Positions 10,588-23,062 are shown, counted from the first letter of the stretch. The stretch is DNA of 60,791 nt from a bacterium (GCA_026986155.1 JALSPC010000016.1:1-60791); one strand, 5' to 3'. Translations and numbers: made by a program. The notes: a model not told the origin generated them from the letters alone.

Positions 10588-12447
10588 ATGCATTCCAAAA
10601 CCGTCACCAACAACGAGTTAAGAAATATCGCCATCATCGCCCACGTGGACCACGGGAAAACCACCCTGGTGGACGCCATGTTCCGCCAAAGCGGGCTGTT
10701 CCGCTCCAACCAGGTGGTGGATGAACGGCTCATGGACACCCTCGACCTGGAGCGGGAACGCGGCATCACTATCGCCGCCAAAAATTGTTCCGTCATCTGG
10801 GACAGTATCCGAATCAATATCATCGACACCCCGGGACACGCGGATTTCGGCGGGGAGGTGGAACGGGCCCTCTCCATGGCCGACGGGGCCATCCTTCTCG
10901 TGGATGCCTCGGAAGGTCCCCTACCCCAGACTCGCTTCGTCCTCGGCAAGGCCCTGGACGCCGGCCTGAAGATCATCGTGGTCATCAACAAGATAGACCG
11001 CCAGGACGCCCGGCCCAACGAGGTGCTCGACGAGATCTACGACTTGCTCATCGACCTAGACGCCACCGACGACCAGTTGGAGTTCCCCCTCCTCTACGCC
11101 GTCGGACGCGACGGCATCGCCAAAAAATCCCTGGAGGAGCCCGGAAAAACCCTCAACCCCCTCATGGAAACCATTCTGAAAGAGATCCCCGGTCCCGTAT
11201 ACACGCCGGGGACACCTTTTCAGATGCTCGTTTCGGACCTGGGTTACTCGGACTATCTGGGCCGCCTGGCCGTGGGAAAGATCTTCAACGGATCGGCGCG
11301 CGCGAAGGATAGCCTCGTCCGTCTTGGGGAAGACGGCCACACCACCCCCCTCAAGATTACCAGCCTCCAGGTTTACCGAGGGATGAAATTGAAGGAGGTG
11401 GAGGAGGTCCAGCCGGGGGACATCGTGGTCCTCTCCGGCATTGAAGACGTGAAGATCGGCGATACCATCTGCACCCAGGAGGCCCCCCGCGCCTTGCCCC
11501 GTATCCGCGTGGAGGAACCGACCGTCTCCATGAAGTTCACGGTGAACAATTCTCCCCTGAGCGGGAAGGAAGGCCCCTACGTGCAGGGGGGACGCATCCT
11601 CGAACGCCTTAAGAAAGAAACCCTCAGAAACGTCTCGATCCAGGTGGAGACAACGGACCGGCAGGACACCTTTATTGTCAAGGGCCGCGGCGAGTTTCAG
11701 CTCGCCATTCTCATCGAAACCATGCGGCGGGAGGGTTTCGAGTTCTGCGTGGGACGTCCCGAGGTCATCTTCAAGTTCAAGGACGAAAAGAAAATGGAAC
11801 CGATGGAACAAGTCCTCATCGACTGCGAGGAACGTTTCCTCGGGATCATCACGGAAAAACTCGCCCTCCGGAAGGGAAAGATGACCAACCTGGTGAACAA
11901 CGGCTCGGGCCGCATCCGTATTGAATTTTCCATTCCTTCCCGGGGGCTCATCGGGTACCGGGACGCGTTTTTAACCGACACCCGGGGAACCGGCATCCTG
12001 CACACCCTTTTCGACGGCTACGGGGAATACCAGGGAGACTATCCCAGCCGCTTCACCGGCTCCATCGTTGCGGACCGGAGCGGGCAGGCGGTTCCCTACG
12101 CCCTGTTCAACCTGGAACCGCGGGGACGGCTCTTCATCACGCCGGGTCAGCCCGTTTACGAGGGCATGATCATCGGAGAGCACAACCGCGGCAAAGACAT
12201 CGACGTGAACGCGTGCAAAGAGAAGAAATTGAGCAACATGCGCGCAGCCGGCCGGGACGCCAACATCATCCTCTCCAAGGTCACTCCGCTCACCCTGGAG
12301 CAGGCCATCGGTTTCATCCGGGAGGACGAATGGGTGGAGGTCACCCCCCGTTCCATCCGCCTCCGCAAGGTTATCCTTTCCGCGCAAAAACGCCATGCCC
12401 TCCGCGGGCTACAACTGAAAAAAGGGATCAGTAACCGGGCGGCGTGA
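10588..12447 (+). CDS. typA: Translational GTPase TypA/BipA
   Basis: 619 aa. G1 motif [34 protein letters not shown]. Confidence 0.95.
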
Positions 12448-12460
12448 AATCCAGCCCTTG

Positions 12461-12496
12461 AAAAACCCGGGGGCGGTTTCCCGCCCCCCCTTTTTT
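12461..12496. terminator. Bidirectional rho-independent terminator
   Basis: AAAAA, then stem CCCGGGGGCGG, loop tttc, stem CCGCCCCCCC, then TTTTTT. It sits between the convergent typA and the 58-aa ORF. Confidence 0.7.
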
Positions 12497-12507
12497 ACGC
12501 CGTCGAT

Positions 12508-12684
12508 CTAACTGGGCCTGGCCAGGGCGTACTCCAGCTCTGCGGGGCTCAACGTGGGATGGGTCACCCGCTTTTCCCGTTCCGGCGGCGTGTCACTGCG
12601 GGTCGTTTCCTCTTTTGCCATGGTTGCCTCCGCCAATTCCCTCTTCATCATTCCTGATTTCATCTCGTTTTGTCTTTCGGACAT
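12508..12684 (-). CDS. Hypothetical 58-aa protein downstream of the tandem attenuators
   Basis: Below the track length cutoff. SD AAGGAG lies 8 nt before the ATG. Translation: MSERQNEMKSGMMKRELAEATMAKEETTRSDTPPEREKRVTHPTLSPAELEYALARPS. I recognise no family. Confidence 0.4.
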   Translation of the reverse strand: MSERQNEMKSGMMKRELAEATMAKEETTRSDTPPEREKRVTHPTLSPAELEYALARPS

Positions 12685-12724
12685 CACTCTTTCTCCTTTT
12701 TAAATACTTTTTCATGTTGAAACG

Positions 12725-12769
12725 AAAAAAGCCGCGGGAAGAGAAGAAGATTCCTGCTCTCCCCGCGGC
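12725..12769 (-). terminator. Terminator of attenuator unit A
   Basis: Minus-strand stem GCCGCGGGGAGAG / CUCUUCCCGCGGC followed by UUUUUU. Confidence 0.65.
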
Positions 12770-12787
12770 TTACGCTCTGCGCACACC

Positions 12788-12880
12788 TTAGCCCGCGGGG
12801 GGACCTCTCCCGGTAAAAAAGTAAAAATAGGCGCAAGCTTTTTCCCTGCCCATGTCGATTCTCCCGTTACCTCTCATCAT
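12788..12880 (-). CDS. Leader peptide A, 30 aa, Phe/Tyr-rich
   Basis: SD GGGAGG lies 9 nt before the ATG. Translation: MMRGNGRIDMGREKACAYFYFFTGRGPPAG. The last four codons and the stop overlap the antiterminator arm CCCCGCGGGCU. Confidence 0.5.
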   Translation of the reverse strand: MMRGNGRIDMGREKACAYFYFFTGRGPPAG

Positions 12881-12909
12881 GCCTGTCATCCTCCCGTGAA
12901 ACTATCAAC

Positions 12910-12940
12910 AAAAAAGCCGTGAGCGCCTACCGCCCACGGC
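12910..12940 (-). terminator. Terminator of attenuator unit B
   Basis: Minus-strand stem GCCGUGGGCG / CGCUCACGGC followed by UUUUUU. Confidence 0.65.
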
Positions 12941-12969
12941 CTTGAACCTTCCTGTGTCATGAAGACCCC

Positions 12970-13062
12970 TCAAGCCATGGGCAGACCTCTCCCGGCGAAA
13001 AAGTAAAAAAAGCAATAGGCGCTTATGGAAACGTAACCTTTGGATTGCAAGATTGAAATCAT
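12970..13062 (-). CDS. Leader peptide B, 30 aa, Phe/Tyr-rich
   Basis: A GGAGG SD lies upstream. A GTG at 13065 is an alternative start. Translation: MISILQSKGYVSISAYCFFYFFAGRGLPMA. Same length as peptide A and aligns to it without gaps. Confidence 0.5.
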   Translation of the reverse strand: MISILQSKGYVSISAYCFFYFFAGRGLPMA

Positions 13063-13093
13063 CACTGTTCTCTTTTCCTCCGTTGTCATTTTA

Positions 13094-13122
13094 ACTCTAA
13101 ACCCTTTTTTACCGTATGTCAA
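13094..13122 (-). promoter_or_regulatory. Sigma70-type promoter candidate for the tandem attenuator transcript
   Basis: Minus strand: TTGACA, a 17-nt spacer, then TAGAGT. Confidence 0.45.
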
Positions 13123-13176
13123 GCCCAATTTTTCGCATAAAATATTCTCACCAGCGAATTTCTAAGAAAGAAGTTC

Positions 13177-13205
13177 TTGACACATACCACATAGTGGTAT
13201 ATTAA
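13177..13205 (+). promoter_or_regulatory. Sigma70-type promoter candidate with an embedded palindromic operator
   Basis: TTGACA, a 17-nt spacer, then TATTAA. The spacer carries ATACCAC-ATA-GTGGTAT at 13184..13200. Confidence 0.45.
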
Positions 13206-13591
13206 ATTAAAATAAATCAAATTTAGAAAACCAAGAAGAATTGTAACATATTTTATGGACAAGAAAATGCGGGAAGTGAATTATTGCACGTTCGGCCATT
13301 GTTTAAAAAAGAATCTATGACAGCTGCTGTATCTCGAAAACACCTGTTTGAAGCTTTGCATTCTAAAACTGCGCCTATCGCGCCTTCCCCCGGGCACCCT
13401 CTTTTTTTCACCATATTATATAAAAACATCCACATATTTGATGACGACGTTTCATTAGTTCCGAATACCAAGTCTCAGGGAATCTCTCTCTATCCCAGGA
13501 AATTACAACTGTACGGAGTACTCTCAAGAGGGGGCATTCCCCCGCTTTATAATTCTGAAATCCCTTATCCAAGAAAGGAGGTTCTGTTTTC

Positions 13592-14026
13592 ATGAACGCA
13601 TCAAGACGAAAATTTCTCGACGGTCTTCTGGGGCTTTTCAGCCTCGCCGGGTTGGCCGCCTTGGCCTATCCAATCCTCAGGTATATCACTCCCATAAAAA
13701 AGAGAGAGGACTCCACGTTATCCGTCGTCGCCTCCAAGATCAACGTGCTGACCCCCAACACAGGGAAATTGTTCAAGTTCGGCAGTAAACCCGGGATTCT
13801 CATCATGACCCCCGAAGGCAAGTACCGGGCATTCTCCGCCGTCTGCACGCACCTCGGCTGCATCGTCCAGTACAGCAGCAAGGATCAGCAGATCTGGTGC
13901 CCGTGCCACAACGGCTGGTTCGATCTCAACGGTCACGTCGTGTCCGGCCCACCCCCTCGTGACCTCGAGCGCTACACGGTCTTCATAAAAGGACAAGATA
14001 TCATCGTGAAAAAGGAGAAGGCATGA
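13592..14026 (+). CDS. Rieske [2Fe-2S] protein
   Basis: 144 aa. Tat-like SRRKFLD followed by a TM segment. Rieske boxes CTHLGC and CPCHNGWF. Confidence 0.9.
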   Translation: MNASRRKFLDGLLGLFSLAGLAALAYPILRYITPIKKREDSTLSVVASKINVLTPNTGKLFKFGSKPGILIMTPEGKYRAFSAVCTHLGCIVQYSSKDQQIWCPCHNGWFDLNGHVVSGPPPRDLERYTVFIKGQDIIVKKEKA

Positions 14027-15084
14027 TGAAGGAAAAGATGCTCAATTGGGTCGAAGAAAGGTTTGACCTGTCCGCGATCCGGCATTTGACAAGGGAAAAG
14101 ACGGTTCCCGTGCACAGGTACACTCCTTTCTATTACTTTGGCGGGCTCGCGCTATTCTTCTTCGTCGTCCAGATTGTCACCGGTATCCTCCTCATGTTGT
14201 ATTACAAGCCAACCGGAGAAAACGCTTACGAAAGTATCCGAACCATTATGACCCAGGTTCGTTTTGGCTGGCTGATTCGTTCCATCCACGTCTGGGGCAC
14301 AAACTTGATGATGCTGGCCGTTTTATTGCACACGTTTGCCAAGTATTTTTTGAAGGCATACAGAAAGCCGAGAGAGTTGACCTGGATCTCCGGTTTCTTT
14401 CTACTCGTCCTGGCGTTGGGCTTCAGTTTTACCGGCCACCCGCTTCCCTGGAACGAATTCGCCTACTTCGCAGCAAAGATTGGAACGGCAAGCATCGGAT
14501 CGGTCCCCCTCGTCGGTCCCTGGTTGCTGGAAGCCATCCGAGGCGGTCAAGGTGTCACGGGTAATACCATCAGCCGTCTTTTCGCCCTGCACGTGGTTGT
14601 TCTCCCCCTCGTAACGATCGGGCTCGTGATTCTCCATCTCCTCTTCGTTCAAATCCAGGGTTCGAGTGTACCCATAAAGGTCAAACCGGTTGGGGAAATT
14701 CCCTTTTTCCCCAATTTTTTTCTCCGAGACTTGAGGGTATGGATGGGAGCCCTGATCGTTCTCGTCGGCCTGGCGACCTTCATCCCAGCCGAACTCGGGA
14801 AAAAAGCCGCCCAGTTCGCCTCGGCCCCGGCCGGGTTAAAACCCGACTGGTATTTTCTCCCCATGTACCAGATCCTGAAATGGATACCTTCAACCATTCT
14901 GGGGATTTCCGGTGAATTGATCGGGATCGGGCTCATCAGCACCGGCGCTTTGTTGATCCTGGTGGTTCCTTTTCTCGACGTCAAGGCCTCCCGGGAGGAA
15001 GAATCAACCTGGTTTACCGTCATTGGGGTCTTCGTTCTCTTTGTCTTCATGCTGGCAATTACAATCTACGCGAAATTATACTGA
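14023..15084 (+). CDS. Cytochrome b (b6 plus subunit IV-like fusion)
   Basis: 353 aa. FYYFGGLALFFFVVQIVTGILLMLYYKP and RSIHVWGTNLMMLAVLLH (haem-ligand helices). PDWYFLPMYQILK. ATGA overlap with the Rieske gene. Confidence 0.9.
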   Translation: MMKEKMLNWVEERFDLSAIRHLTREKTVPVHRYTPFYYFGGLALFFFVVQIVTGILLMLYYKPTGENAYESIRTIMTQVRFGWLIRSIHVWGTNLMMLAVLLHTFAKYFLKAYRKPRELTWISGFFLLVLALGFSFTGHPLPWNEFAYFAAKIGTASIGSVPLVGPWLLEAIRGGQGVTGNTISRLFALHVVVLPLVTIGLVILHLLFVQIQGSSVPIKVKPVGEIPFFPNFFLRDLRVWMGALIVLVGLATFIPAELGKKAAQFASAPAGLKPDWYFLPMYQILKWIPSTILGISGELIGIGLISTGALLILVVPFLDVKASREEESTWFTVIGVFVLFVFMLAITIYAKLY

Positions 15085-15097
15085 TCGGAGGAGCAAG

Positions 15098-16348
15098 ATG
15101 AGAAAAATAATCACCATTATCCTGGTCTTCACAGCCCTCGCGGTTTACCAGAATGTTCACGCCGAGGAAACCTCCTGTCAGGCCTGCCACGCCAAACTGA
15201 ATGGGCGCTTGTCTGAACCTGTAACCCAATGGAAAAACAGCGTGCATCACCAGGCGGGGATAAGCTGTACGAATTGTCACGGGGGAGACCCGGCCGCCCG
15301 CAGTGAAAGCTCCGCCCATAATGAAAAGACGGGATGGATTGGAAAACCCGGCCCAATCAAGTCAGTAAGAATTTGTGGAAATTGTCATGGGAACGAGCTG
15401 TTCATGAAAAAGTTTGACCCCAACGCGCGAACGGACCAATTGAAAAATTACCTCACCTCGAACCACGGGATTAATATCATGTTTAAAAAGGACGGCAAGG
15501 GTGCAACCTGCGTCAGTTGCCACGGCGCCCATGATGTCCTCAAGGCAATGAACCCTCAATCTCACGTCTACCCCACCCGGGTCGTGGAAACCTGCGCAAA
15601 ATGCCACGCCGACAAAAAACTGATGGCGAAATACGGAATATCGGGGAATGAAGTCTCGGAATATAAAAAGAGTGTTCATGCCAAGGCGTTGTATGAAGGC
15701 CATGACCTCTTCGCTCCTACCTGTAATGACTGTCATGGAAACCACGGCGCCGTTCCCCCAAAGGCCGCTTCTATCGAGGACGTGTGCGGCTTATGCCATG
15801 CCTTGGATCAGAAACTTTTCAACGAAAGCCCCCACAAGGCATGGAAAGAGTCCGGTTTGAGAGGATGCATGGAATGCCACGGCAACCACGCCATTCTGAA
15901 ACCCACCGACGCCATGCTGGCTCCCGGCAAGGGTATCTGTCTCAAATGCCATGAAACGGGAGAAAAGGCATTGAAAACCATGAACACCATGTATTCGACG
16001 CTAACAGGGTTGAAAAGAAAAATGGAAAACACCAAGAAACTGGTCGACACCGCCTCGGAAAAGGGGATGCCGATGGACGACGCCCTGCTCATTCTCCAGG
16101 AAGCGAGAAACAGTTACATCAAGTCTCATACGGCCATTCACAAGTTCAACGCCGCCTACGTGCAGCAAACGGCCCAAGGGGCATTCAAAGAGGTGATCAA
16201 GGCCCAAAAAATCGCCCATGCCCGCATTGCTGAAATAAAAAAACGCCGTGCGTTTTTTTACTGGTTCGGCGCCGTCATCATCCTGTTGATCCTTCTTTTG
16301 AGCATCAAGATCCGCATCATGGTGAAAAAGAAGAAACGGCTCCCTTAG
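15098..16348 (+). CDS. Membrane-anchored nine-haem c-type cytochrome
   Basis: Start at MRKIITIILVF, with a GGAGGAG SD. The track start at 15023 overlaps cyt b. Nine CxxCH motifs. C-terminal TM segment FFYWFGAVIILLILLLSIKI. Confidence 0.85.
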   Translation: MRKIITIILVFTALAVYQNVHAEETSCQACHAKLNGRLSEPVTQWKNSVHHQAGISCTNCHGGDPAARSESSAHNEKTGWIGKPGPIKSVRICGNCHGNELFMKKFDPNARTDQLKNYLTSNHGINIMFKKDGKGATCVSCHGAHDVLKAMNPQSHVYPTRVVETCAKCHADKKLMAKYGISGNEVSEYKKSVHAKALYEGHDLFAPTCNDCHGNHGAVPPKAASIEDVCGLCHALDQKLFNESPHKAWKESGLRGCMECHGNHAILKPTDAMLAPGKGICLKCHETGEKALKTMNTMYSTLTGLKRKMENTKKLVDTASEKGMPMDDALLILQEARNSYIKSHTAIHKFNAAYVQQTAQGAFKEVIKAQKIAHARIAEIKKRRAFFYWFGAVIILLILLLSIKIRIMVKKKKRLP

Positions 16349-16492
16349 GAATTCTACCAGTGAGCGCATGCCCCCATCCCTGGAATCACTTGACCCCCCG
16401 TCCTTCCGCCTGTAGGATCGTGCCGAAAGTAACAGGCCTCTCACCATGCCTGGGGACACAACTCGCGGAGACGGCCCCATCGGAGAGAAAGA

Positions 16493-16888
16493 ATGAAAGC
16501 TGAAGAGTTCGCTGCCATACGCAAAAGGCTGGGCAAGACCCAGAAAAAGATGGCCGAACTATTAGGTGTCTCGGTCAAAGCAATTCACAGTTACGAACAG
16601 GGGTGGCGCAAGATCCCGGCGCACGTGGAAAGACAAGCCTTCCTCCTCTTTTCAAGGACACTGGAAGACAGCAAAACGACAAAACCTTGCTGGGTCATCA
16701 ATGAATGCCTCCCACACATGGATGAAAAATGCCCTGCCTGGGAATTCAGGTTTGGAACCCTTTGCTGGTTTATCAACGGGACAATCTGTGAAGGGAAGGT
16801 TCATGCCAACTGGAATGAAAAGATGGAAGTCTGCCGTAAATGCAAGGTCATGGCCCCCCTTTTATCCGAACTCAACTCCTCAACCTGA
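16493..16888 (+). CDS. XRE-family HTH regulator with a Cys/Trp-rich C-terminal domain
   Basis: 131 aa. HTH segment LGKTQKKMAELLGVSVKAIHSYEQG. C-terminal half has 7 Cys including PCWVINEC and LCWFINGTIC. It is possibly the domain annotated as two-CW, but I am not certain. Confidence 0.75.
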   Translation: MKAEEFAAIRKRLGKTQKKMAELLGVSVKAIHSYEQGWRKIPAHVERQAFLLFSRTLEDSKTTKPCWVINECLPHMDEKCPAWEFRFGTLCWFINGTICEGKVHANWNEKMEVCRKCKVMAPLLSELNSST

Positions 16889-16981
16889 TGAACCATGACA
16901 CCCTCCCGTGATCCTGGTCGGGACCCGGGGGCGAAACTTTTCTGAAAATTTGGATATCTGCTCCCTTACCATCATCCTTGC

Positions 16982-17011
16982 TTGACGATATATACCACAA
17001 TGTGGTATATA
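16982..17011 (+). promoter_or_regulatory. Sigma70-type promoter candidate for metYXW with an embedded palindromic operator
   Basis: TTGACG, a 17-18 nt spacer, then GTATAT or TATATA. The spacer carries the perfect palindrome ATATACCACA-A-TGTGGTATAT at 16990..17010. Confidence 0.5.
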
Positions 17012-17049
17012 TCCGGGCAAATTTTCAAATCAATGAAAGGAGAAAGCTA

Positions 17050-18339
17050 ATGGCGGACAATGGATACAGGTTTGACACGTTAACGATTCACGCAGGTTCC
17101 ACGATAGACGAGACCGGGGCTCGCGCGACACCTGTTTACCGAACCAGTTCTTACATGTTCAAGAACACCCAGCACGCGGCGGATCTCTTCGCCCTTAAAC
17201 AACCGGGAAACATCTATTCACGGATTATGAACCCCACCCACGACATCCTCGAAAAAAGAATGGCGGCCCTGGAGGGAGGCGCGGGAGCCTTGGCGACGGC
17301 TTCCGGCACCTCCGCCATTTTCTACACGGCCGTAAACATCTGCGGCATGGGGGATGAGATCGTCTCGGCGAACAACCTCTATGGGGGAACATACACCATG
17401 TTCGACGCTATTCTTCCTGAAATGGGAATCTCCACGAGATTCGTGGACCCCTCAGACCCGGCAAACTTCGAACACGCGATAAGGGAAAGAACACGAATGC
17501 TTTACGTCGAATCGATAGGAAATCCCGCCCTTGACGTGGCGGATATCGAAGCGGTTTCCGAAATAGCAAAAAAATACCATCTTCCCCTCGTGGTCGATTC
17601 CACCTTCACAACCCCGTACCTCCTCCGTCCCCTTGAATCCGGAGCCGATATCGTGGTTCACTCGCTGACAAAGTGGCTCGGGGGGCACGGCACGGGCATC
17701 GGGGGAATCGTGGTGGACGGCGGACATTTCGATTGGACCGACAAAAAATTCCGCCTCTACAACGACCCCGACCCTTCATACCACGATCTCCGGTGGGCCC
17801 ACGACCTGGATGATTCAACCCCCCTGGCATTCATCCTCCGCATGAGGCTCGTTCCCCTGAGAAACCTGGGCGCGTGCATCAGCCCGGACAACGCCTGGAT
17901 ATTTCTCCAGGGCATCGAGACGCTCCCCCTCAGGATGCAGCGCCATTGCGACAACGCCATGAAGGTTGCCGGGTTCCTGAAAAACCATCCCCGCGTGCGG
18001 TGGGTCCGGTATCCCGGTCTTGAGGATGATCCCGCCCATCCCGCGGCTTCCAGGCAGTTCAAAAACGGCTTCGGTGGCATGGTCGTCTTCGGCATCGAGG
18101 GAGGGAAGGCCGCCGGGGAAAGCTTCATCAACAATCTTCGTCTCATCTCCCACCTTGCCAACGTGGGAGACGCGAAGACCCTGGCCATTCACCCCGCCTC
18201 CACGACCCACTCGCAGCTATCCGAAGAGCAACAGCAGGGAAGCGGTATAACTCCGGATCTCATCAGGCTTTCCGTGGGGCTCGAATGCGTGGAAGACATC
18301 CTCGAAGACCTCGAACAGGCCCTGGGAAAAACGGATTGA
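17050..18339 (+). CDS. metY: O-acetylhomoserine sulfhydrylase
   Basis: Start at MADNGYRFDTLTIHAG with an AAAGGAG SD. PLP-lysine motif HSLTKWLGGHG. Confidence 0.9.
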   Translation: MADNGYRFDTLTIHAGSTIDETGARATPVYRTSSYMFKNTQHAADLFALKQPGNIYSRIMNPTHDILEKRMAALEGGAGALATASGTSAIFYTAVNICGMGDEIVSANNLYGGTYTMFDAILPEMGISTRFVDPSDPANFEHAIRERTRMLYVESIGNPALDVADIEAVSEIAKKYHLPLVVDSTFTTPYLLRPLESGADIVVHSLTKWLGGHGTGIGGIVVDGGHFDWTDKKFRLYNDPDPSYHDLRWAHDLDDSTPLAFILRMRLVPLRNLGACISPDNAWIFLQGIETLPLRMQRHCDNAMKVAGFLKNHPRVRWVRYPGLEDDPAHPAASRQFKNGFGGMVVFGIEGGKAAGESFINNLRLISHLANVGDAKTLAIHPASTTHSQLSEEQQQGSGITPDLIRLSVGLECVEDILEDLEQALGKTD

Positions 18340-18362
18340 ACACGCCCGGTCCAGTATGAACC

Positions 18363-19550
18363 ATGAGTGAATACATTGAGCACGATAAAAACGGCGTATC
18401 GGTCGGTGTTGTAGAAAAAAAGTTCTTCACCTTCGCCAAGCCTCCCGATGAAATATGTCTCGAAAGCGGTGCGAAACTCGGCCCTGTCACCCTCGCCTAC
18501 GAAACCTACGGCACCCTGAACGAGGATAAAAACAACGCGATCCTCATCTGTCACGCCCTTTCAGGGGATTCCCACGTGGCCGGGTATTACGCGCCAAGCG
18601 ACCCGAAGCCAGGATGGTGGGACATCATGGTTGGTCCCGGAAAGGGAATCGACACGGACAGGTATTTTGTCGTCTGCTCGAACATCCTGGGAAGCTGCAA
18701 GGGCTCGACGGGTCCGTGCTCCATCAATCCAAAAACGAACAGGCCGTACGGTCTCGACTTTCCCGTCATAACCATCGGGGACATGGTCAAGGCCCAGAAA
18801 AGGCTCATTGATCACCTCGGAATAAAGAAAATCCTTTCGATCATCGGTGGTTCCATAGGGGGGATGCAGGCGCTCGAGTGGAGCGTGAGATACCCCGAAG
18901 CCGTTGCCTCCACCGTTGCACTCGCGACGGCCACGAGGCATTCCGCGCTGGCCATCGCCTTCAACGAGGTGGCAAGGCAGGCCATCATGGCGGATCCCAG
19001 TTGGAAAGGGGGAAACTACTACGGGGGCCCCGGGCCGGACACGGGACTCACCGTGGCCAGGATGATCGGGCATATCACCTACCTTTCGGAAGAGGCCATG
19101 AGGGAGAAGTTCGGCCGGCGCCTACAGGGAAGGGAAAAATTCTCTTTCCGATTTGACGCCGATTTCCAAGTGGAAAGCTATCTCCGCCACCAGGGCAGCA
19201 AGTTCGTGGAGCGGTTCGATGCCAATTCCTTTCTCTACGTCACAAAGGCGGCCGATTACTACGACCTGCCCGGCCAGCACGGCTCGGGATCCCTGGTCCA
19301 CGCCTTTGCAAAGGCCAGGGCGAAGTTCCTGGTGGTCTCCTTCACGTCCGACTGGCTCTATCCTACCCGTCACTCGAGGACCATGGTACAGGCCCTCAAA
19401 AAGTGCGGCCGCGACGTAAGTTTCTGCGAAATCGAAGCAAAATGGGGACACGACGCCTTCCTCCTGCCCAATGACCGCCTGGCGGGCCTCCTCAGGGGGT
19501 TCCTGGCGCGCGTCTTTTTTGATGAAAGCAATGGAAAGAATGCGTTTTGA
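18363..19550 (+). CDS. metX: Homoserine O-acetyltransferase
   Basis: 395 aa. ILICHALSGDSHVAG. Nucleophile elbow GGSIGGMQALEW. Confidence 0.92.
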   Translation: MSEYIEHDKNGVSVGVVEKKFFTFAKPPDEICLESGAKLGPVTLAYETYGTLNEDKNNAILICHALSGDSHVAGYYAPSDPKPGWWDIMVGPGKGIDTDRYFVVCSNILGSCKGSTGPCSINPKTNRPYGLDFPVITIGDMVKAQKRLIDHLGIKKILSIIGGSIGGMQALEWSVRYPEAVASTVALATATRHSALAIAFNEVARQAIMADPSWKGGNYYGGPGPDTGLTVARMIGHITYLSEEAMREKFGRRLQGREKFSFRFDADFQVESYLRHQGSKFVERFDANSFLYVTKAADYYDLPGQHGSGSLVHAFAKARAKFLVVSFTSDWLYPTRHSRTMVQALKKCGRDVSFCEIEAKWGHDAFLLPNDRLAGLLRGFLARVFFDESNGKNAF

Positions 19551-20163
19551 CCTGGAAACCATCGCGTCCTTCATTGAGCCCGGCGCCACGGTTTTGGATC
19601 TCGGCTGCGGGGACGGTGACCTTCTCTACTTCCTGAAAAAAGAGAAGAAGATTGAGGGTATAGGCATCGAGAAAGATGAAGCGAAAGTCGCTCGTTGCAT
19701 CGAACGGGGGATTCCCGTGATTCATGGCGACATCAACAAAGAGATCCTCGACTACCCGGCCAACGCCTTTGACTATGTGATCTTGAGCCGAACGCTCCAG
19801 CAGGTATATGATCCGGCGGGACTCATTCATTCTATGCTGCGCGTGGGGAAAAAAGGAATCGTCAGTTTCCCCAATTTCGGCCACTGGCGCGTTCGCTGGC
19901 AGCTGCTTTATACGGGACACACTCCCGTCACGCGGCAGCTTCCCTACGAATGGCACGACACCCCGAACATCAGGGTTATTACGCTGAAGGATTTCCGAAA
20001 ATTTTCCAGAGACACGGGATTCCGAATCCTGAAAATTTCCGGACTCGTCATGGAGAAGGAGAACGCCGGGGGACGCGTAGTGAGATTTTTCCCAAACCTG
20101 CGGGCTGCCTACGGAATCTTTCTCATCGGGAAGAAACTTCCTTACGAGTCACCCGATAGTTAG
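19540..20163 (+). CDS. metW: Methionine biosynthesis protein MetW
   Basis: MRFDLETIASFIEPGATVLDLGCGDGDLL matches the usual MetW N-terminus. In-frame ATGs at 19522 and 19531 are alternatives. It overlaps the metX stop. Confidence 0.85.
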   Translation: MRFDLETIASFIEPGATVLDLGCGDGDLLYFLKKEKKIEGIGIEKDEAKVARCIERGIPVIHGDINKEILDYPANAFDYVILSRTLQQVYDPAGLIHSMLRVGKKGIVSFPNFGHWRVRWQLLYTGHTPVTRQLPYEWHDTPNIRVITLKDFRKFSRDTGFRILKISGLVMEKENAGGRVVRFFPNLRAAYGIFLIGKKLPYESPDS

Positions 20164-20204
20164 ATTCAATCTATCTGTCGGGGTACCCTAATCCCATGTT
20201 GACC

Positions 20205-21299
20205 TCAGCCGATGGCCTCTTCCGTGTCGGCGTCGAAGAAATGGAGGTTCTCAAGCCGGGCCTTGAGAAGGATGTCCTGCTTCGTCTTGACGCGGCTCTG
20301 GGGGGAGATGGAGGCCAAAAGGTCGCGTCCGCCCACGCGCACGTCCACGTAGATCTGGTTTCCCACGGGTTGGACCACCTCCACGAAGGCCGTGAAGGCA
20401 CCGGGGGCGTCGGGGAACTCAGTCTCCGAGAGGTCTTCCGGCCGCACGCCCAGGGTGATTTCCCTTCCCGCGTAGGGCGCGAGCGCCTCCCGTTTCTCCG
20501 CGGCGACGGGGAGCCTGAGTCCCTCGGTAATGACGAAAAGGTCCTCCCCTTCCTTCTCCACACGCACGCCCTCGATGAAGTTCATGGTGGGTGACCCGAT
20601 GAACCCGGCCACGAAACGGTTCACGGGATGCATGTAGATCTCGAGTGGTTCTCCCACCTGCTGGACCCGGCCGTCCTTCATGACGACGATACGGTCTCCC
20701 ATGGTCATGGCCTCGATCTGATCGTGAGTGACGTAGATACTCGTGGTTCCTATTTGTTCGTGAAGTTTCTTCAGCTCCAGGCGCATCTGGACCCTCAGTT
20801 TGGCGTCCAAATTGGAGAGGGGCTCGTCGAAGAGATAGACCTTGGGGGTTCGGACGATGGCCCGTCCCAGGGCCACGCGCTGGCGCTGCCCTCCCGAAAG
20901 CTCCTTAGGTTTCCTCTTGAGGAAATCGAGAATCCCCAGCATGGCGGCGGTCTCCCCGACCCGCCGGTCGATCTCGTCCTTGGGGACCTTCTTGAGCTTC
21001 AGCCCGAAGGCCATGTTCTGGTAGACGGACATGTGGGGATAGAGGGCGTAGTTCTGGAAGACCATGGCGATGTCCCGGTCCTTGGGAGGCACATGGTTGA
21101 CCTTCCGGTCGTCGATGAAGATCTCCCCGGAGGTGATGTCCTCCAGCCCGGCGATCATGCGCAGCGTTGTAGTCTTGCCGCATCCGCTGGGTCCCACGAA
21201 GACCATGAATTCCCCGTGCCGGATGGTCAGGGAGAAGTCATCCACGGCAACGACGTCCCCGAATTTCTTACCCACGTTCTTCAGAACCACTTCGGCCAT
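20205..21299 (-). CDS. Sugar ABC transporter ATP-binding protein (MalK/UgpC type)
   Basis: 364 aa. Walker A GPSGCGKTT. Signature LSGGQRQRVALGRA. C-terminal TOBE-like domain. Confidence 0.9.
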   Translation of the reverse strand: MAEVVLKNVGKKFGDVVAVDDFSLTIRHGEFMVFVGPSGCGKTTTLRMIAGLEDITSGEIFIDDRKVNHVPPKDRDIAMVFQNYALYPHMSVYQNMAFGLKLKKVPKDEIDRRVGETAAMLGILDFLKRKPKELSGGQRQRVALGRAIVRTPKVYLFDEPLSNLDAKLRVQMRLELKKLHEQIGTTSIYVTHDQIEAMTMGDRIVVMKDGRVQQVGEPLEIYMHPVNRFVAGFIGSPTMNFIEGVRVEKEGEDLFVITEGLRLPVAAEKREALAPYAGREITLGVRPEDLSETEFPDAPGAFTAFVEVVQPVGNQIYVDVRVGGRDLLASISPQSRVKTKQDILLKARLENLHFFDADTEEAIG

Positions 21300-21305
21300 A
21301 CGCAG

Positions 21306-22145
21306 CTACTCCTTCAACGCCCCGGTGATGCCCGCGACGTAGTATTCCACAAAGAATGAATAGACCAGCGCCACGGGGACGCTCCCGAAGAGGGCCCCCG
21401 CCATCAGGGGTCCCCAATGATAGACATCGCCCCGCACCAGCTCGGTGACAAGGCCCACCGAGACGGTCTTTTTCAAGCTCGAAGAGATGAAGGTGAGGGC
21501 GTAGAGATACTCGTTCCACGAGAGGGTGAAGGCAAAGATGCCGGCCGAGAGAATCCCCGGGAGGGAAAGGGGGATGATCACCCGCCAGAAAATCCACATG
21601 CGGCTTGCCCCGTCCATCATGGCGCACTCCTCCAGCTCCTTGGGAATGGAGTTGAAATAGCCCATCAAGAGCCAGGTGCAGAATGGGATGAGAAAGGTGG
21701 GATAGATGAGGGACAAGGCCCAGAGGGAATCCCACAGGTGGAGCTTGAAGATCATGGTGGCCAGGGGGATAAACAGGATGGTGGGCGGCACCAGGTAGCA
21801 AAAGAAGATGCCGATCCCCATCAGGTTGGACCCCTTGAAGCGGATCCGCTGGATGCCGTAGGCGGCAAGCAGGCTCGCCGAAAGGGAGATAACGGTCGAG
21901 GTAATGGCCACGAAAAAGGTATTGTAGAGCCAGCGAAGAAAGCGCGTCTCGAAAAAGAGGTGCTTCAGGTTGGCAAGCGACCAGGTATGAATGAGAAAGG
22001 GATTGAGCTTTAGGTTGTAGAGCTCCACGTCCGATTTGAAGGTGGTGGCGAACATCCAGTAGAACGGGAAGAGGAGGAAGACGAGGAACAAGAAGAGCGG
22101 GAGATAGAACCGGAAGAACTTTTCTCTCTGTTTTTGTGGCATCAT
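21306..22145 (-). CDS. Sugar ABC transporter permease (CUT1 family)
   Basis: True start at MMPQKQREKFF, in an ATGA overlap with the upstream permease. EAA loop ECAMMDGASRMWIFWRVIIPLSLP. The 93-aa N-terminal extension in the track is rejected. Confidence 0.85.
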   Translation of the reverse strand: MMPQKQREKFFRFYLPLFLFLVFLLFPFYWMFATTFKSDVELYNLKLNPFLIHTWSLANLKHLFFETRFLRWLYNTFFVAITSTVISLSASLLAAYGIQRIRFKGSNLMGIGIFFCYLVPPTILFIPLATMIFKLHLWDSLWALSLIYPTFLIPFCTWLLMGYFNSIPKELEECAMMDGASRMWIFWRVIIPLSLPGILSAGIFAFTLSWNEYLYALTFISSSLKKTVSVGLVTELVRGDVYHWGPLMAGALFGSVPVALVYSFFVEYYVAGITGALKE

Positions 22146-23062
22146 CACGCTTCCCGCTTGAGAAACTTTGAGGTTATGACGACGCTGATGAAGAGGACGG
22201 GAAAGATGAAGGCCGAAATGGCCGCCCCCTCGCCCAGGTGTCCCCCCGCGATGGCCCGCTGGAAGGAAAAGGTGCCGAAGATGTGGGTCGCGTTGTCGGG
22301 GCCTCCCCGGGTCATGATCCAGATAAGCTGGAAGTCCGCGAAGGTCCAGATGATGGAAAAGGTGGTGATCACCGCCAGGAGGGGCATGATGAGGGGCAGC
22401 GTGATGCTTTTGAATTTCACCCACGGGGTCGCCCCGTCAATGTCCGCCGCCTCGTACAAGGTCTGGTTGATGGTCTGGAGACCCGCCATCAGGCCGATGG
22501 TAAAGAAGGGAATCCCCCGCCAGATGTTGACGATGATGACCGATATCCTCGCGTTGACGGGACTTCCGAGAAAATCGATGGGATGGCTCATGAGGCCCAG
22601 ATGCATCAAGAGCCAGCTGATACAGGAAAAGTTCGAATCGAAGATCCACCAAAAGGCGATGGTGGACAGAGCGGTGGGGACGATCCATGGCAGCAGCACG
22701 ATAGCACGGATGAGCCCCTTCCCCTTGAAATCCTTATTCAGGACGATGGCCAGGCCAAACCCTAGAATCAGCTTGAAGAAGACGGCGACGACGGTGTAGA
22801 GCACCGTGTTGAACGCCGTCAGCCAGAAGACATCACTGTGGAACAGGTCGATGTAGTTTTCCAGCCCCACGAAGGAACCGGACCGCCCGATAATCGTGTT
22901 GGTGAAGGAAAGCCAGATTCCCAGGACGAAGGGATAGGCGAGGAGGAGAAGCAGGATGATGTCAGCGGGAAGGGTAAAGAGGAATCCCAAGACCCCCTTC
23001 CTCTGAAGCAGGCCGACGGGAGGGGCCTTCAGCGCCCCTCCCCCGGCGTTTCCCGATCGCAT
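22145..23062 (-). CDS. Sugar ABC transporter permease (CUT1 family)
   Basis: Start at MRSGNAGGG. EAA loop EAADIDGATPWVKFKSITLPLIMP. Confidence 0.85.
   Translation of the reverse strand: MRSGNAGGGALKAPPVGLLQRKGVLGFLFTLPADIILLLLLAYPFVLGIWLSFTNTIIGRSGSFVGLENYIDLFHSDVFWLTAFNTVLYTVVAVFFKLILGFGLAIVLNKDFKGKGLIRAIVLLPWIVPTALSTIAFWWIFDSNFSCISWLLMHLGLMSHPIDFLGSPVNARISVIIVNIWRGIPFFTIGLMAGLQTINQTLYEAADIDGATPWVKFKSITLPLIMPLLAVITTFSIIWTFADFQLIWIMTRGGPDNATHIFGTFSFQRAIAGGHLGEGAAISAFIFPVLFISVVITSKFLKREA

Follow-up and report, generated by a model that had tools for sequence, protein, structure and literature searches.

How are the methionine genes metY, metX and metW controlled when the leader of metY leaves no room for a riboswitch? 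The question is raised by a stretch of bacterial DNA of 60,791 nucleotides (nt) (GCA_026986155.1, JALSPC010000016.1:1-60791; the whole stretch is referred to here as the window). In it, metY, metX and metW follow in the family's usual way, directly 3' of and on the same strand as a gene for a small helix-turn-helix (HTH) protein. A sequence-only reading of positions 16493 to 17011 had proposed that this protein binds a palindrome in the metY promoter and senses a metal, iron-sulfur (Fe-S) or redox signal. The answer that now appears likely has three parts. An XRE-type protein carrying a two-CW domain would bind the palindrome and repress metYXW through one operator (O2) and a second promoter through another (O1), the two-CW domain would be a sensor with a Cys-ligated cofactor, and the whole would be an acquired module.

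The regulator gene (16493-16888, + strand) is an open reading frame (ORF) whose product has 131 amino acids (P0001) and combines an XRE HTH at residues 8-42 with a two-CW domain at residues 65-120. Both assignments come from profile matches above cutoff, namely Pfam HTH_3 (PF01381, residues 8-42, 29.2 bits, cutoff 23), which places the protein in the XRE family, and NCBIfam NF045718 "two_CW_domain" (residues 65-120, 42.8 bits, cutoff 35). The translation contains everything that had been claimed for it: the motifs PCWVINEC, LCWFINGTIC and CRKC, and seven cysteines (C66, C72, C80, C91, C99, C114 and C117). An AlphaFold2 model of the full-length protein has a predicted local distance difference test score (pLDDT) of 93 and a predicted template modelling score (pTM) of 0.86. 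Many XRE structures align with residues 1-58 of this model at Z 6-9 and a root-mean-square deviation (rmsd) of 1-2 Å (Foldseek, VIA).

The promoter of metYXW, P2 (16982-17011, +), is a sequence reading with a conserved layout: a -35 hexamer TTGACG (16982-16987), an 18-nt spacer and a -10 hexamer TATATA (17006-17011). The palindrome reported in its spacer is real and perfect, but it is longer than the 10+10 inverted repeat first described. O2 spans 16988-17012 as a perfect 12+1+12 inverted repeat, and its conserved core ATACCACAATGTGGTAT occupies 16992-17008. Identical cores precede the regulator genes in loci L014, L018, L020, L022 and L023 of other species. The metY leader is indeed short, about 30-40 nt to the ATG at 17050. 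No S-adenosylmethionine (SAM) or S-adenosylhomocysteine (SAH) riboswitch was returned by a permissive Rfam cmscan of 11000-23000 (E ≤ 1), which gave only a chance snoRNA match elsewhere, and so offers nothing for riboswitch control in that interval.

A second operator, O1, lies 3.8 kb or less from the regulator gene, as does O2. O1 (13184-13200, ATACCACATAGTGGTAT) is a perfect 7-N3-7 palindrome in the spacer of promoter P1 (13177-13205, +; -35 TTGACA 13177-13182, 17-nt spacer, -10 TATTAA 13200-13205), which faces a Rieske/cytochrome b operon. How exclusive are these two sites? They are the only perfect copies of ATACCAC-N3-GTGGTAT in the 2.68-Mb genome (both <3.8 kb from the regulator gene), and at one mismatch or fewer they are still the sole matches, with none for a reversed control pattern. 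In a genome scan with a position weight matrix (PWM) trained on the sites of other species, O2 ranks first (34.2) and O1 second (30.1), followed by a third site at 20.4 and a remainder below 16. No further methionine or cysteine gene of this genome has a site in that scan, and the single extra candidate is the third-ranked one, TTATACTACGTGGTAGTATAA (G000:C154:7473-7493; L127:2974-2994). This is a perfect ATACTAC-N3-GTAGTAT variant, 55 nt 5' of a truncated ATPase-like ORF that starts MEELFHRFNPWW and is cut by the contig end.

Do regulator and palindrome travel together in other genomes? Homologues of P0001 form 2,868 clusters at E ≤ 1e-3, chiefly from metagenome-assembled genomes (MAGs) of Desulfobacterota and often with several paralogues per genome. 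More than 100 clusters share 57-70% identity with it over at least 92% of its length, a library at 50% identity contains 295 representatives at E ≤ 1e-10, and the homologues are restricted to genomes of anaerobes. For comparison, 80 species-level loci around regulator homologues from other species (57-70% identity, 664 kb) were examined, with the reversed pattern as control. Allowing 0, ≤1 and ≤2 mismatches gives 15, 47 and 78 copies of the motif, against 0, 0 and 2 for the control. Regulator, palindrome and target operon are found together across sulfate-reducing bacteria. A site (PWM ≥14) is found within 350 nt 5' of the regulator start in 59/80 loci, mostly between -47 and -135. In 43 aligned sites, a TTGACA-like hexamer ends 1-5 nt before the palindrome and a TATnnn sequence starts at its last three bases, the operator filling spacers of 17-18 nt.

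The same association is seen on the scale of whole genomes. Among the nearest 30 genomes an orthologue is present in G018 only, with a site 50 nt upstream of it. In a sample of 151 genomes from the phylum, the regulator occurs in 22, and a site is present in 15 of these 22 and in 19 of the 129 genomes that lack the regulator (Fisher p 6e-7, a value inflated by relatedness because kin are not independent). All perfect sites in the sample fall within regulator-positive genomes. Phylogenetic footprinting was the check that the sequence-only reading had proposed for itself, and it strongly favours the pairing of regulator and palindrome, which can be called well supported on these comparative grounds. 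It also strongly supports the wider suggestion that metYXW have no riboswitch and that the neighbouring XRE/Cys-rich protein controls them by way of the palindrome in their promoter. Some sites are more elaborate. At loci L115 and L117 (G031, strain M19) further half-site-like repeats adjoin the operator core, as in ATACCACTTTGTGGTGTACTACGTTGTATAGCGACACAAAGTAGTAT, which points to tandem or composite operators for some targets, here a 487-aa ORF unmatched in Pfam and a chemoreceptor gene.

What would binding do? The best-supported mechanism, given where the sites lie, would be repression through promoter occlusion. The protein is predicted to sit on ATACCAC-N3-GTGGTAT as a dimer, with the two half-sites one helical turn apart. 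The operator fills the spacer between the -35 and -10 hexamers and overlaps the first -10 bases; therefore, the bound protein should block RNA polymerase. Through O2 this would silence metYXW, whose products form homocysteine directly from sulfide, and through O1 it would shut off the promoter pointing into the operon for the Rieske protein, cytochrome b and multihaem cytochrome. In the proposed scheme, it is the cofactor-loaded regulator that binds DNA and represses sulfur assimilation, and it would come off if the cofactor were lost or modified.

The genes served by O2 are readily identified. They are metY, encoding O-acetylhomoserine sulfhydrylase, a homocysteine synthase (17050-18339, +; PF01053, E 3e-136; TIGR01326, 609 bits), metX, encoding homoserine O-acetyltransferase (18363-19550, +; NF001209, 548 bits), and metW (19471-20163, +, as the longest ORF, with the MetW domain starting at residue 25; PF07021, E 5e-70; TIGR02081, 238 bits). 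Of the 80 loci, 29 have metX next to the regulator, 28 have metY there and 22 have metW. The commonest gene order is regulator-metY-metX-metW, followed by a serine acetyltransferase-like (cysE-like) gene and cysK. The order regulator-metY-metX-metW of the window, with metY adjacent, recurs in 25/80 loci. Where metY comes directly after the regulator, it mostly lacks a private operator and is served by the one before the regulator (24/25 loci). Private metY operators, as in the window, occur in L004, L006, L024 and L069, and the site intervening between regulator and metY is shared with L004. The window is a rarer layout, with an operatorless regulator gene, a private metY operator and a second operator before a respiratory operon.

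Other loci add further genes, for a NifS cysteine desulfurase, a TusA/YedF-like protein, a LarE-like sulfur transferase, a MOSC protein and MnmA. In genome G144 a ThiF-family enzyme, a pyridoxal phosphate (PLP) enzyme and a ThiI-like protein are under operators. At the locus concerned (L147; G144:C212:4000-9000), the regulator and a divergent ThiF-family gene have one operator between them, and a second precedes the genes for a 409-aa PLP enzyme with an N-terminal zinc-ribbon-like segment and a ThiI-like PP-loop protein. The arrangement resembles a route in which sulfur is incorporated by way of a sulfur-carrier protein, under the same regulator. Whole-genome scans of five carriers gave 0-4 sites each, and the extra targets in carriers are of mixed kinds, with genes for a multihaem cytochrome, a DsrE-like protein, a chemoreceptor and an alcohol dehydrogenase. 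Judged by its gene content, the core role of the regulon is control of the incorporation of reduced sulfur into homocysteine and cysteine.

Where did this arrangement come from? The 7.2 kb at 13014-20208, which comprise O1, the genes for the Rieske protein, cytochrome b and cytochrome c, the regulator gene, O2 and metYXW, have no DNA counterpart in five relatives (four genomes of the same genus and one of the same family). Similarity to these relatives ends at about 13013 and resumes at 20209, and typA and the adjacent attenuator region do have counterparts. In the same-genus and same-family genomes the regulator and the motif are likewise missing, and so are orthologues of metY (best 33-36%) and cytochrome b (37-38%). 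GC content is 0.51 in the interval 13.5-17 kb and about 0.59 in the flanks. The closest Met proteins are those of Desulfobacteraceae: MetY, MetX and MetW are 80%, 80% and 72% identical to those of L006, a MAG of an uncultured member of the Desulfobacteraceae, and 80%, 79% and 68% identical to those of L004; both of these loci share the private-metY-operator layout with the window. The missing counterparts, the low GC content and the Desulfobacteraceae-like Met proteins together suggest that the regulated module was probably acquired as a unit, from a Desulfobacteraceae-like donor. The borders of the block showed no direct repeats in the flanks, no integrase and no tRNA, and the contigs of the relatives break near typA or diverge, so that an exact empty site could not be demonstrated.

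A further question is what O1 controls. Downstream of P1 are genes for a Rieske [2Fe-2S] protein (13592-14026, +; PF00355, E 7e-13), a cytochrome b of the b6 plus subunit IV type (14023-15084, +; PF00033/PF13631/PF00032) and a multihaem cytochrome c (15023-16348, +, as the longest ORF, although the start may be later; Pfam Cytochrom_c3_2, Cytochrome_C7 and Paired_CXXCH_1). Within its 3' end, about 90 nt short of the stop codon, the multihaem cytochrome ORF has a hairpin of an A-tract and a T-tract, AAAAAAACGCCGTGCGTTTTTTT (16238-16260), which resembles a bidirectional terminator. P1 and the Rieske gene are separated by an AT-rich leader of about 390 nt (13206-13591, +) with an ORF of 21 aa (13256-13321, MDKKMREVNYCTFGHCLKKNL), a T-run at about 13398-13407 and a small GC hairpin at 13530-13543. 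The RNA fold of the leader is no better than that of shuffled sequences (z 0.68), and a 103-aa ORF in the leader has no family match and looks non-coding. This region may be a separate short transcript.

The sequence-only reading had extended control to the locus at 13.2 kb, and a perfect palindrome is indeed there. However, the link is specific to this genome. Homologous operons encoding the Rieske protein, cytochrome b and multihaem cytochrome (17 metagenome loci, 43-51% identity) have no regulator, and a site was found in none of them (0/17). On these 17 loci, Rieske/cytochrome b operons were rejected as a recurrent target of the regulator, and the connection with O1 is lineage-specific. 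In another carrier genome, at L112 (G035:C36:294187-297203), an operator-like sequence, ATCCCACATGGTGGTAT, overlaps a TATATA box about 180 nt 5' of the gene for a 231-aa multihaem cytochrome c, which hints that cytochromes might be occasional members of the regulon.

What if O1 is the ancestral promoter of the regulator gene, stranded when a Rieske/cytochrome b/cytochrome c cassette was inserted between them? In that case O1 would be no sign that respiration is physiologically coupled to sulfur status. The idea has some appeal. An operator-bearing promoter directly 5' of the regulator is what 59/80 loci have, and here that position is empty: the upstream region of about 145 nt (16349-16492) contains no palindrome at ≤3 mismatches that could be an autoregulatory operator, only a promoter-like TTGACC-17-TAGGAT (16390-16418, +; 9/12 in a consensus scan) that is operator-free and looks unregulated. 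The nearest operator upstream precedes the inserted-looking cassette, and the 17 homologous Rieske operons are siteless. On the other hand, no homology beyond the motif was detected between P1 and the regulator promoters of L004 and L006, flanking repeats were not found, and the L112 site likewise precedes a multihaem cytochrome gene, so that cytochromes may be genuine occasional targets. Moreover, even a relic O1 would still confer regulation. A stranded promoter is a serious possibility, though less likely than not. In the preferred explanation, read-through from P1 may reach the regulator gene, and this would restore the autoregulation typical of the family.

The other major question concerns the signal. 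All seven cysteines and the tryptophans of both CW motifs (C66W67 and C91W92) are invariant in 26 sequences. Three of these 26 aligned copies of the domain are in non-XRE contexts, two in histidine kinases, where they follow HAMP and precede HisKA, and the third in an ORF of 133 aa that has no match in Pfam. The two-CW domain is also the C-terminus of a chemoreceptor, and the pair of XRE HTH and two-CW domain is found at the N-terminus of a sigma-54 activator and a 751-aa PAS kinase. In the latter case (L146:990-3245, G123:C15; also G058 and G093) a regulator homologue with 51% identity heads a PAS-PAS-histidine kinase, whose gene is followed by one for a response regulator. Kinases fused to a DNA-binding domain are unusual. 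A word-based search for longer fused forms of the regulator found none, and the fusions surfaced by other routes. The occurrence of the domain in kinases, a chemoreceptor and a sigma-54 activator argues that it is a general cytoplasmic input module.

Invariant cysteines and reuse of the domain are compatible with a metal, Fe-S or redox signal, as the sequence-only reading had suspected. The favoured interpretation, by analogy, is that the two-CW domain is a Cys-ligated cofactor sensor that would report sulfur, thiol or redox sufficiency. It is favoured because of IscR-type logic and because the regulon handles sulfur. The cofactor would most likely be an Fe-S cluster, otherwise Zn. Structural comparisons gave no lead. 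Foldseek searches of the PDB and VIA-wide with the full model matched the HTH only and never the two-CW domain, a domain-only AlphaFold model has a pLDDT of 51, and a profile search of PDB sequences, permissive Pfam and the ESM Atlas yielded nothing meaningful or usable for the domain.

Perhaps the cysteines have a humbler role. In this alternative, the two-CW domain would bind structural Zn for dimerisation, and the signal would be a metabolite, such as SAM, SAH, homocysteine, O-acetylhomoserine, cysteine or sulfide, acting as co-repressor or inducer. There are precedents, since MetJ senses SAM, SahR and McbR sense SAH and MetR senses homocysteine (PMC4239095). The regulon is biosynthetic, and a CxxC such as C114-x2-C117 is a typical source of Zn ligands. 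However, the same domain is the input module of kinases, a chemoreceptor and a sigma-54 activator, which points to a general sensor, and seven invariant cysteines exceed the needs of one Zn site. Structural Zn with a metabolite signal is therefore rather unlikely, and a cofactor sensor is retained as the preferred view of the domain.

Could the protein activate rather than repress? An operator in the spacer and a Cys-rich, putatively cofactor-binding domain recall SoxR, in which case a change in cofactor state would remodel the promoter in the MerR/SoxR style and switch metYXW on. There is even a faint match to the MerR HTH (PF00376, 17.2 bits). That score is below the cutoff of 28.2, however, and the fold is XRE/Cro-like, so membership of the MerR family is not indicated. 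Activation of the MerR type also needs spacers of 19-20 nt, whereas those here and in relatives are 17-18 nt, and with -35 hexamers so near to consensus the promoters should fire unaided. Activation is very improbable. That another factor binds the palindrome and the XRE gene is nearby by coincidence, or that the palindrome is an RNA hairpin, is hardly credible: sequence is what links the XRE protein to the site, and the several paralogues per genome could share or swap sites, but regulator and site co-localise in 59/80 species-level loci with no control matches, the presence of one correlates with that of the other genome-wide, and a site that lies 5' of the -10 hexamer and is hence mostly untranscribed would give only a weak hairpin, an A/U-rich 7-bp stem with a 3-nt loop.

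Several observations nevertheless weigh against repression by an acquired, cofactor-sensing regulator. The whole case is one of sequence and comparative genomics. The regulator gene has no operator at its own promoter here, unlike in 59/80 relatives, and 21/80 homologous loci have no site at the threshold used; therefore, some members of the family may use other operators. A simple sigma-70 consensus scanner listed neither P1 nor P2, because both -10 hexamers end in A, and the assignment of these promoters is accordingly a sequence reading backed by conserved architecture in other genomes. The structural searches give the cofactor idea no backing. Fragmentation of the MAGs weakens the argument from an empty site. 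Finally, control of the Rieske operon is uncertain, since a 390-nt leader with a T-run intervenes and the homologous operons are siteless.

What would follow if the proposal were taken further? The two-CW domain might be a hitherto unrecognised Cys-ligated sensor module of anaerobes (Fe-S or persulfide-reactive), and its fusion to an XRE HTH a master repressor of reduced-sulfur incorporation in Desulfobacterota (metYXW, cysEK, NifS, TusA and ThiF/ThiI-type sulfur carriers), spread with operator and target operon by horizontal transfer as a cassette that regulates itself, and here joined by a captured Rieske operon. As a package this is tentative and rather doubtful. If true, the captured Rieske/cytochrome b operon would tie electron transport to sulfur status. 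Even the more restrained proposal offers a regulator family with thousands of members, a sharp 17-bp operator, a geometry of repression that is conserved and a regulon that coheres around sulfur assimilation. The two-CW domain, with its seven invariant cysteines, has no Pfam family and no solved structure, and its cofactor or signal would explain the input of many signalling proteins in anaerobes. The window adds the module as a transferable unit, with an unusual second operator before a respiratory operon.

How does this compare with known systems? A literature search found no paper on the two-CW domain/NF045718 or on an XRE/two-CW regulator, and no characterised member of the family. In sequence terms, the protein would be a repressor of the XRE type whose putative Cys-rich sensor is uncharacterised but widely reused, and its regulon was not found in the literature searched. 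The job itself is a familiar one. MetJ (ribbon-helix-helix, SAM), MetR (LysR, homocysteine), SahR/SamR (ArsR, SAH) and McbR (TetR, SAH) all exert feedback control of the metX/metY type (PMC4239095, PMC545781). However, the known methionine regulators have another fold and another operator, and the RNA elements that do this work elsewhere (SAM-I, SAM-II and SAH riboswitches) had no match in the 11000-23000 scan. Surveys of delta-proteobacteria describe S-box riboswitches in Geobacter and Desulfuromonas and SahR in Desulfovibrionales and Desulfuromonadales (PMC545781, PMC4239095). These surveys cover only Desulfovibrionales and Desulfuromonadales and do not mention an XRE/two-CW regulator; control of direct-sulfhydrylation methionine and cysteine synthesis in sulfate reducers of the Desulfobacterales type is not described in them.

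Parts of the regulator recall other proteins. The 434 repressor, P22 c2, C.AhdI and C.BclI have the same N-terminal five-helix HTH (rmsd 1-2 Å over 52-58 residues), and phage repressors of the XRE/Cro-cI type and the C proteins of restriction-modification systems likewise bind a short promoter palindrome as dimers and regulate themselves. They differ in having no Cys-rich C-terminal sensor and in targeting lysogeny or restriction-modification genes and not biosynthesis. The antitoxin MqsA also combines an XRE HTH with a Cys-containing metal domain, and weak matches to PF15731 (21.4 bits) and TIGR03830 (29.1 bits) cover only the HTH. Both are below cutoff (30 and 61.8), the Zn domain of MqsA is N-terminal, no toxin gene is nearby and the operator is different, so the regulator does not qualify as an MqsA. 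A toxin-antitoxin reading in general (MqsA/HigA/HipB-like) was rejected, there being only sub-threshold HTH matches and no partner gene. In IscR, SoxR, FNR, the WhiB-like proteins and SqrR/CstR/FisR, a Cys-ligated cofactor or thiols gate DNA binding at sulfur or Fe-S targets. These sensors have no sequence or detectable fold kinship with the regulator, and the likeness is one of analogy only.

The closest counterparts are the operons of Desulfobacterota in which a regulator with the XRE HTH and NF045718 heads metYXW-cysEK. They have the same pair of domains, the same operator core, the same position of the operator in the spacer and the same metYXW neighbours, with regulators that are 57-70% identical to that of the window. 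What distinguishes the window from them is an operatorless regulator gene, a private metY operator, a second operator before the Rieske/cytochrome b genes, and a host whose relatives are without the module.

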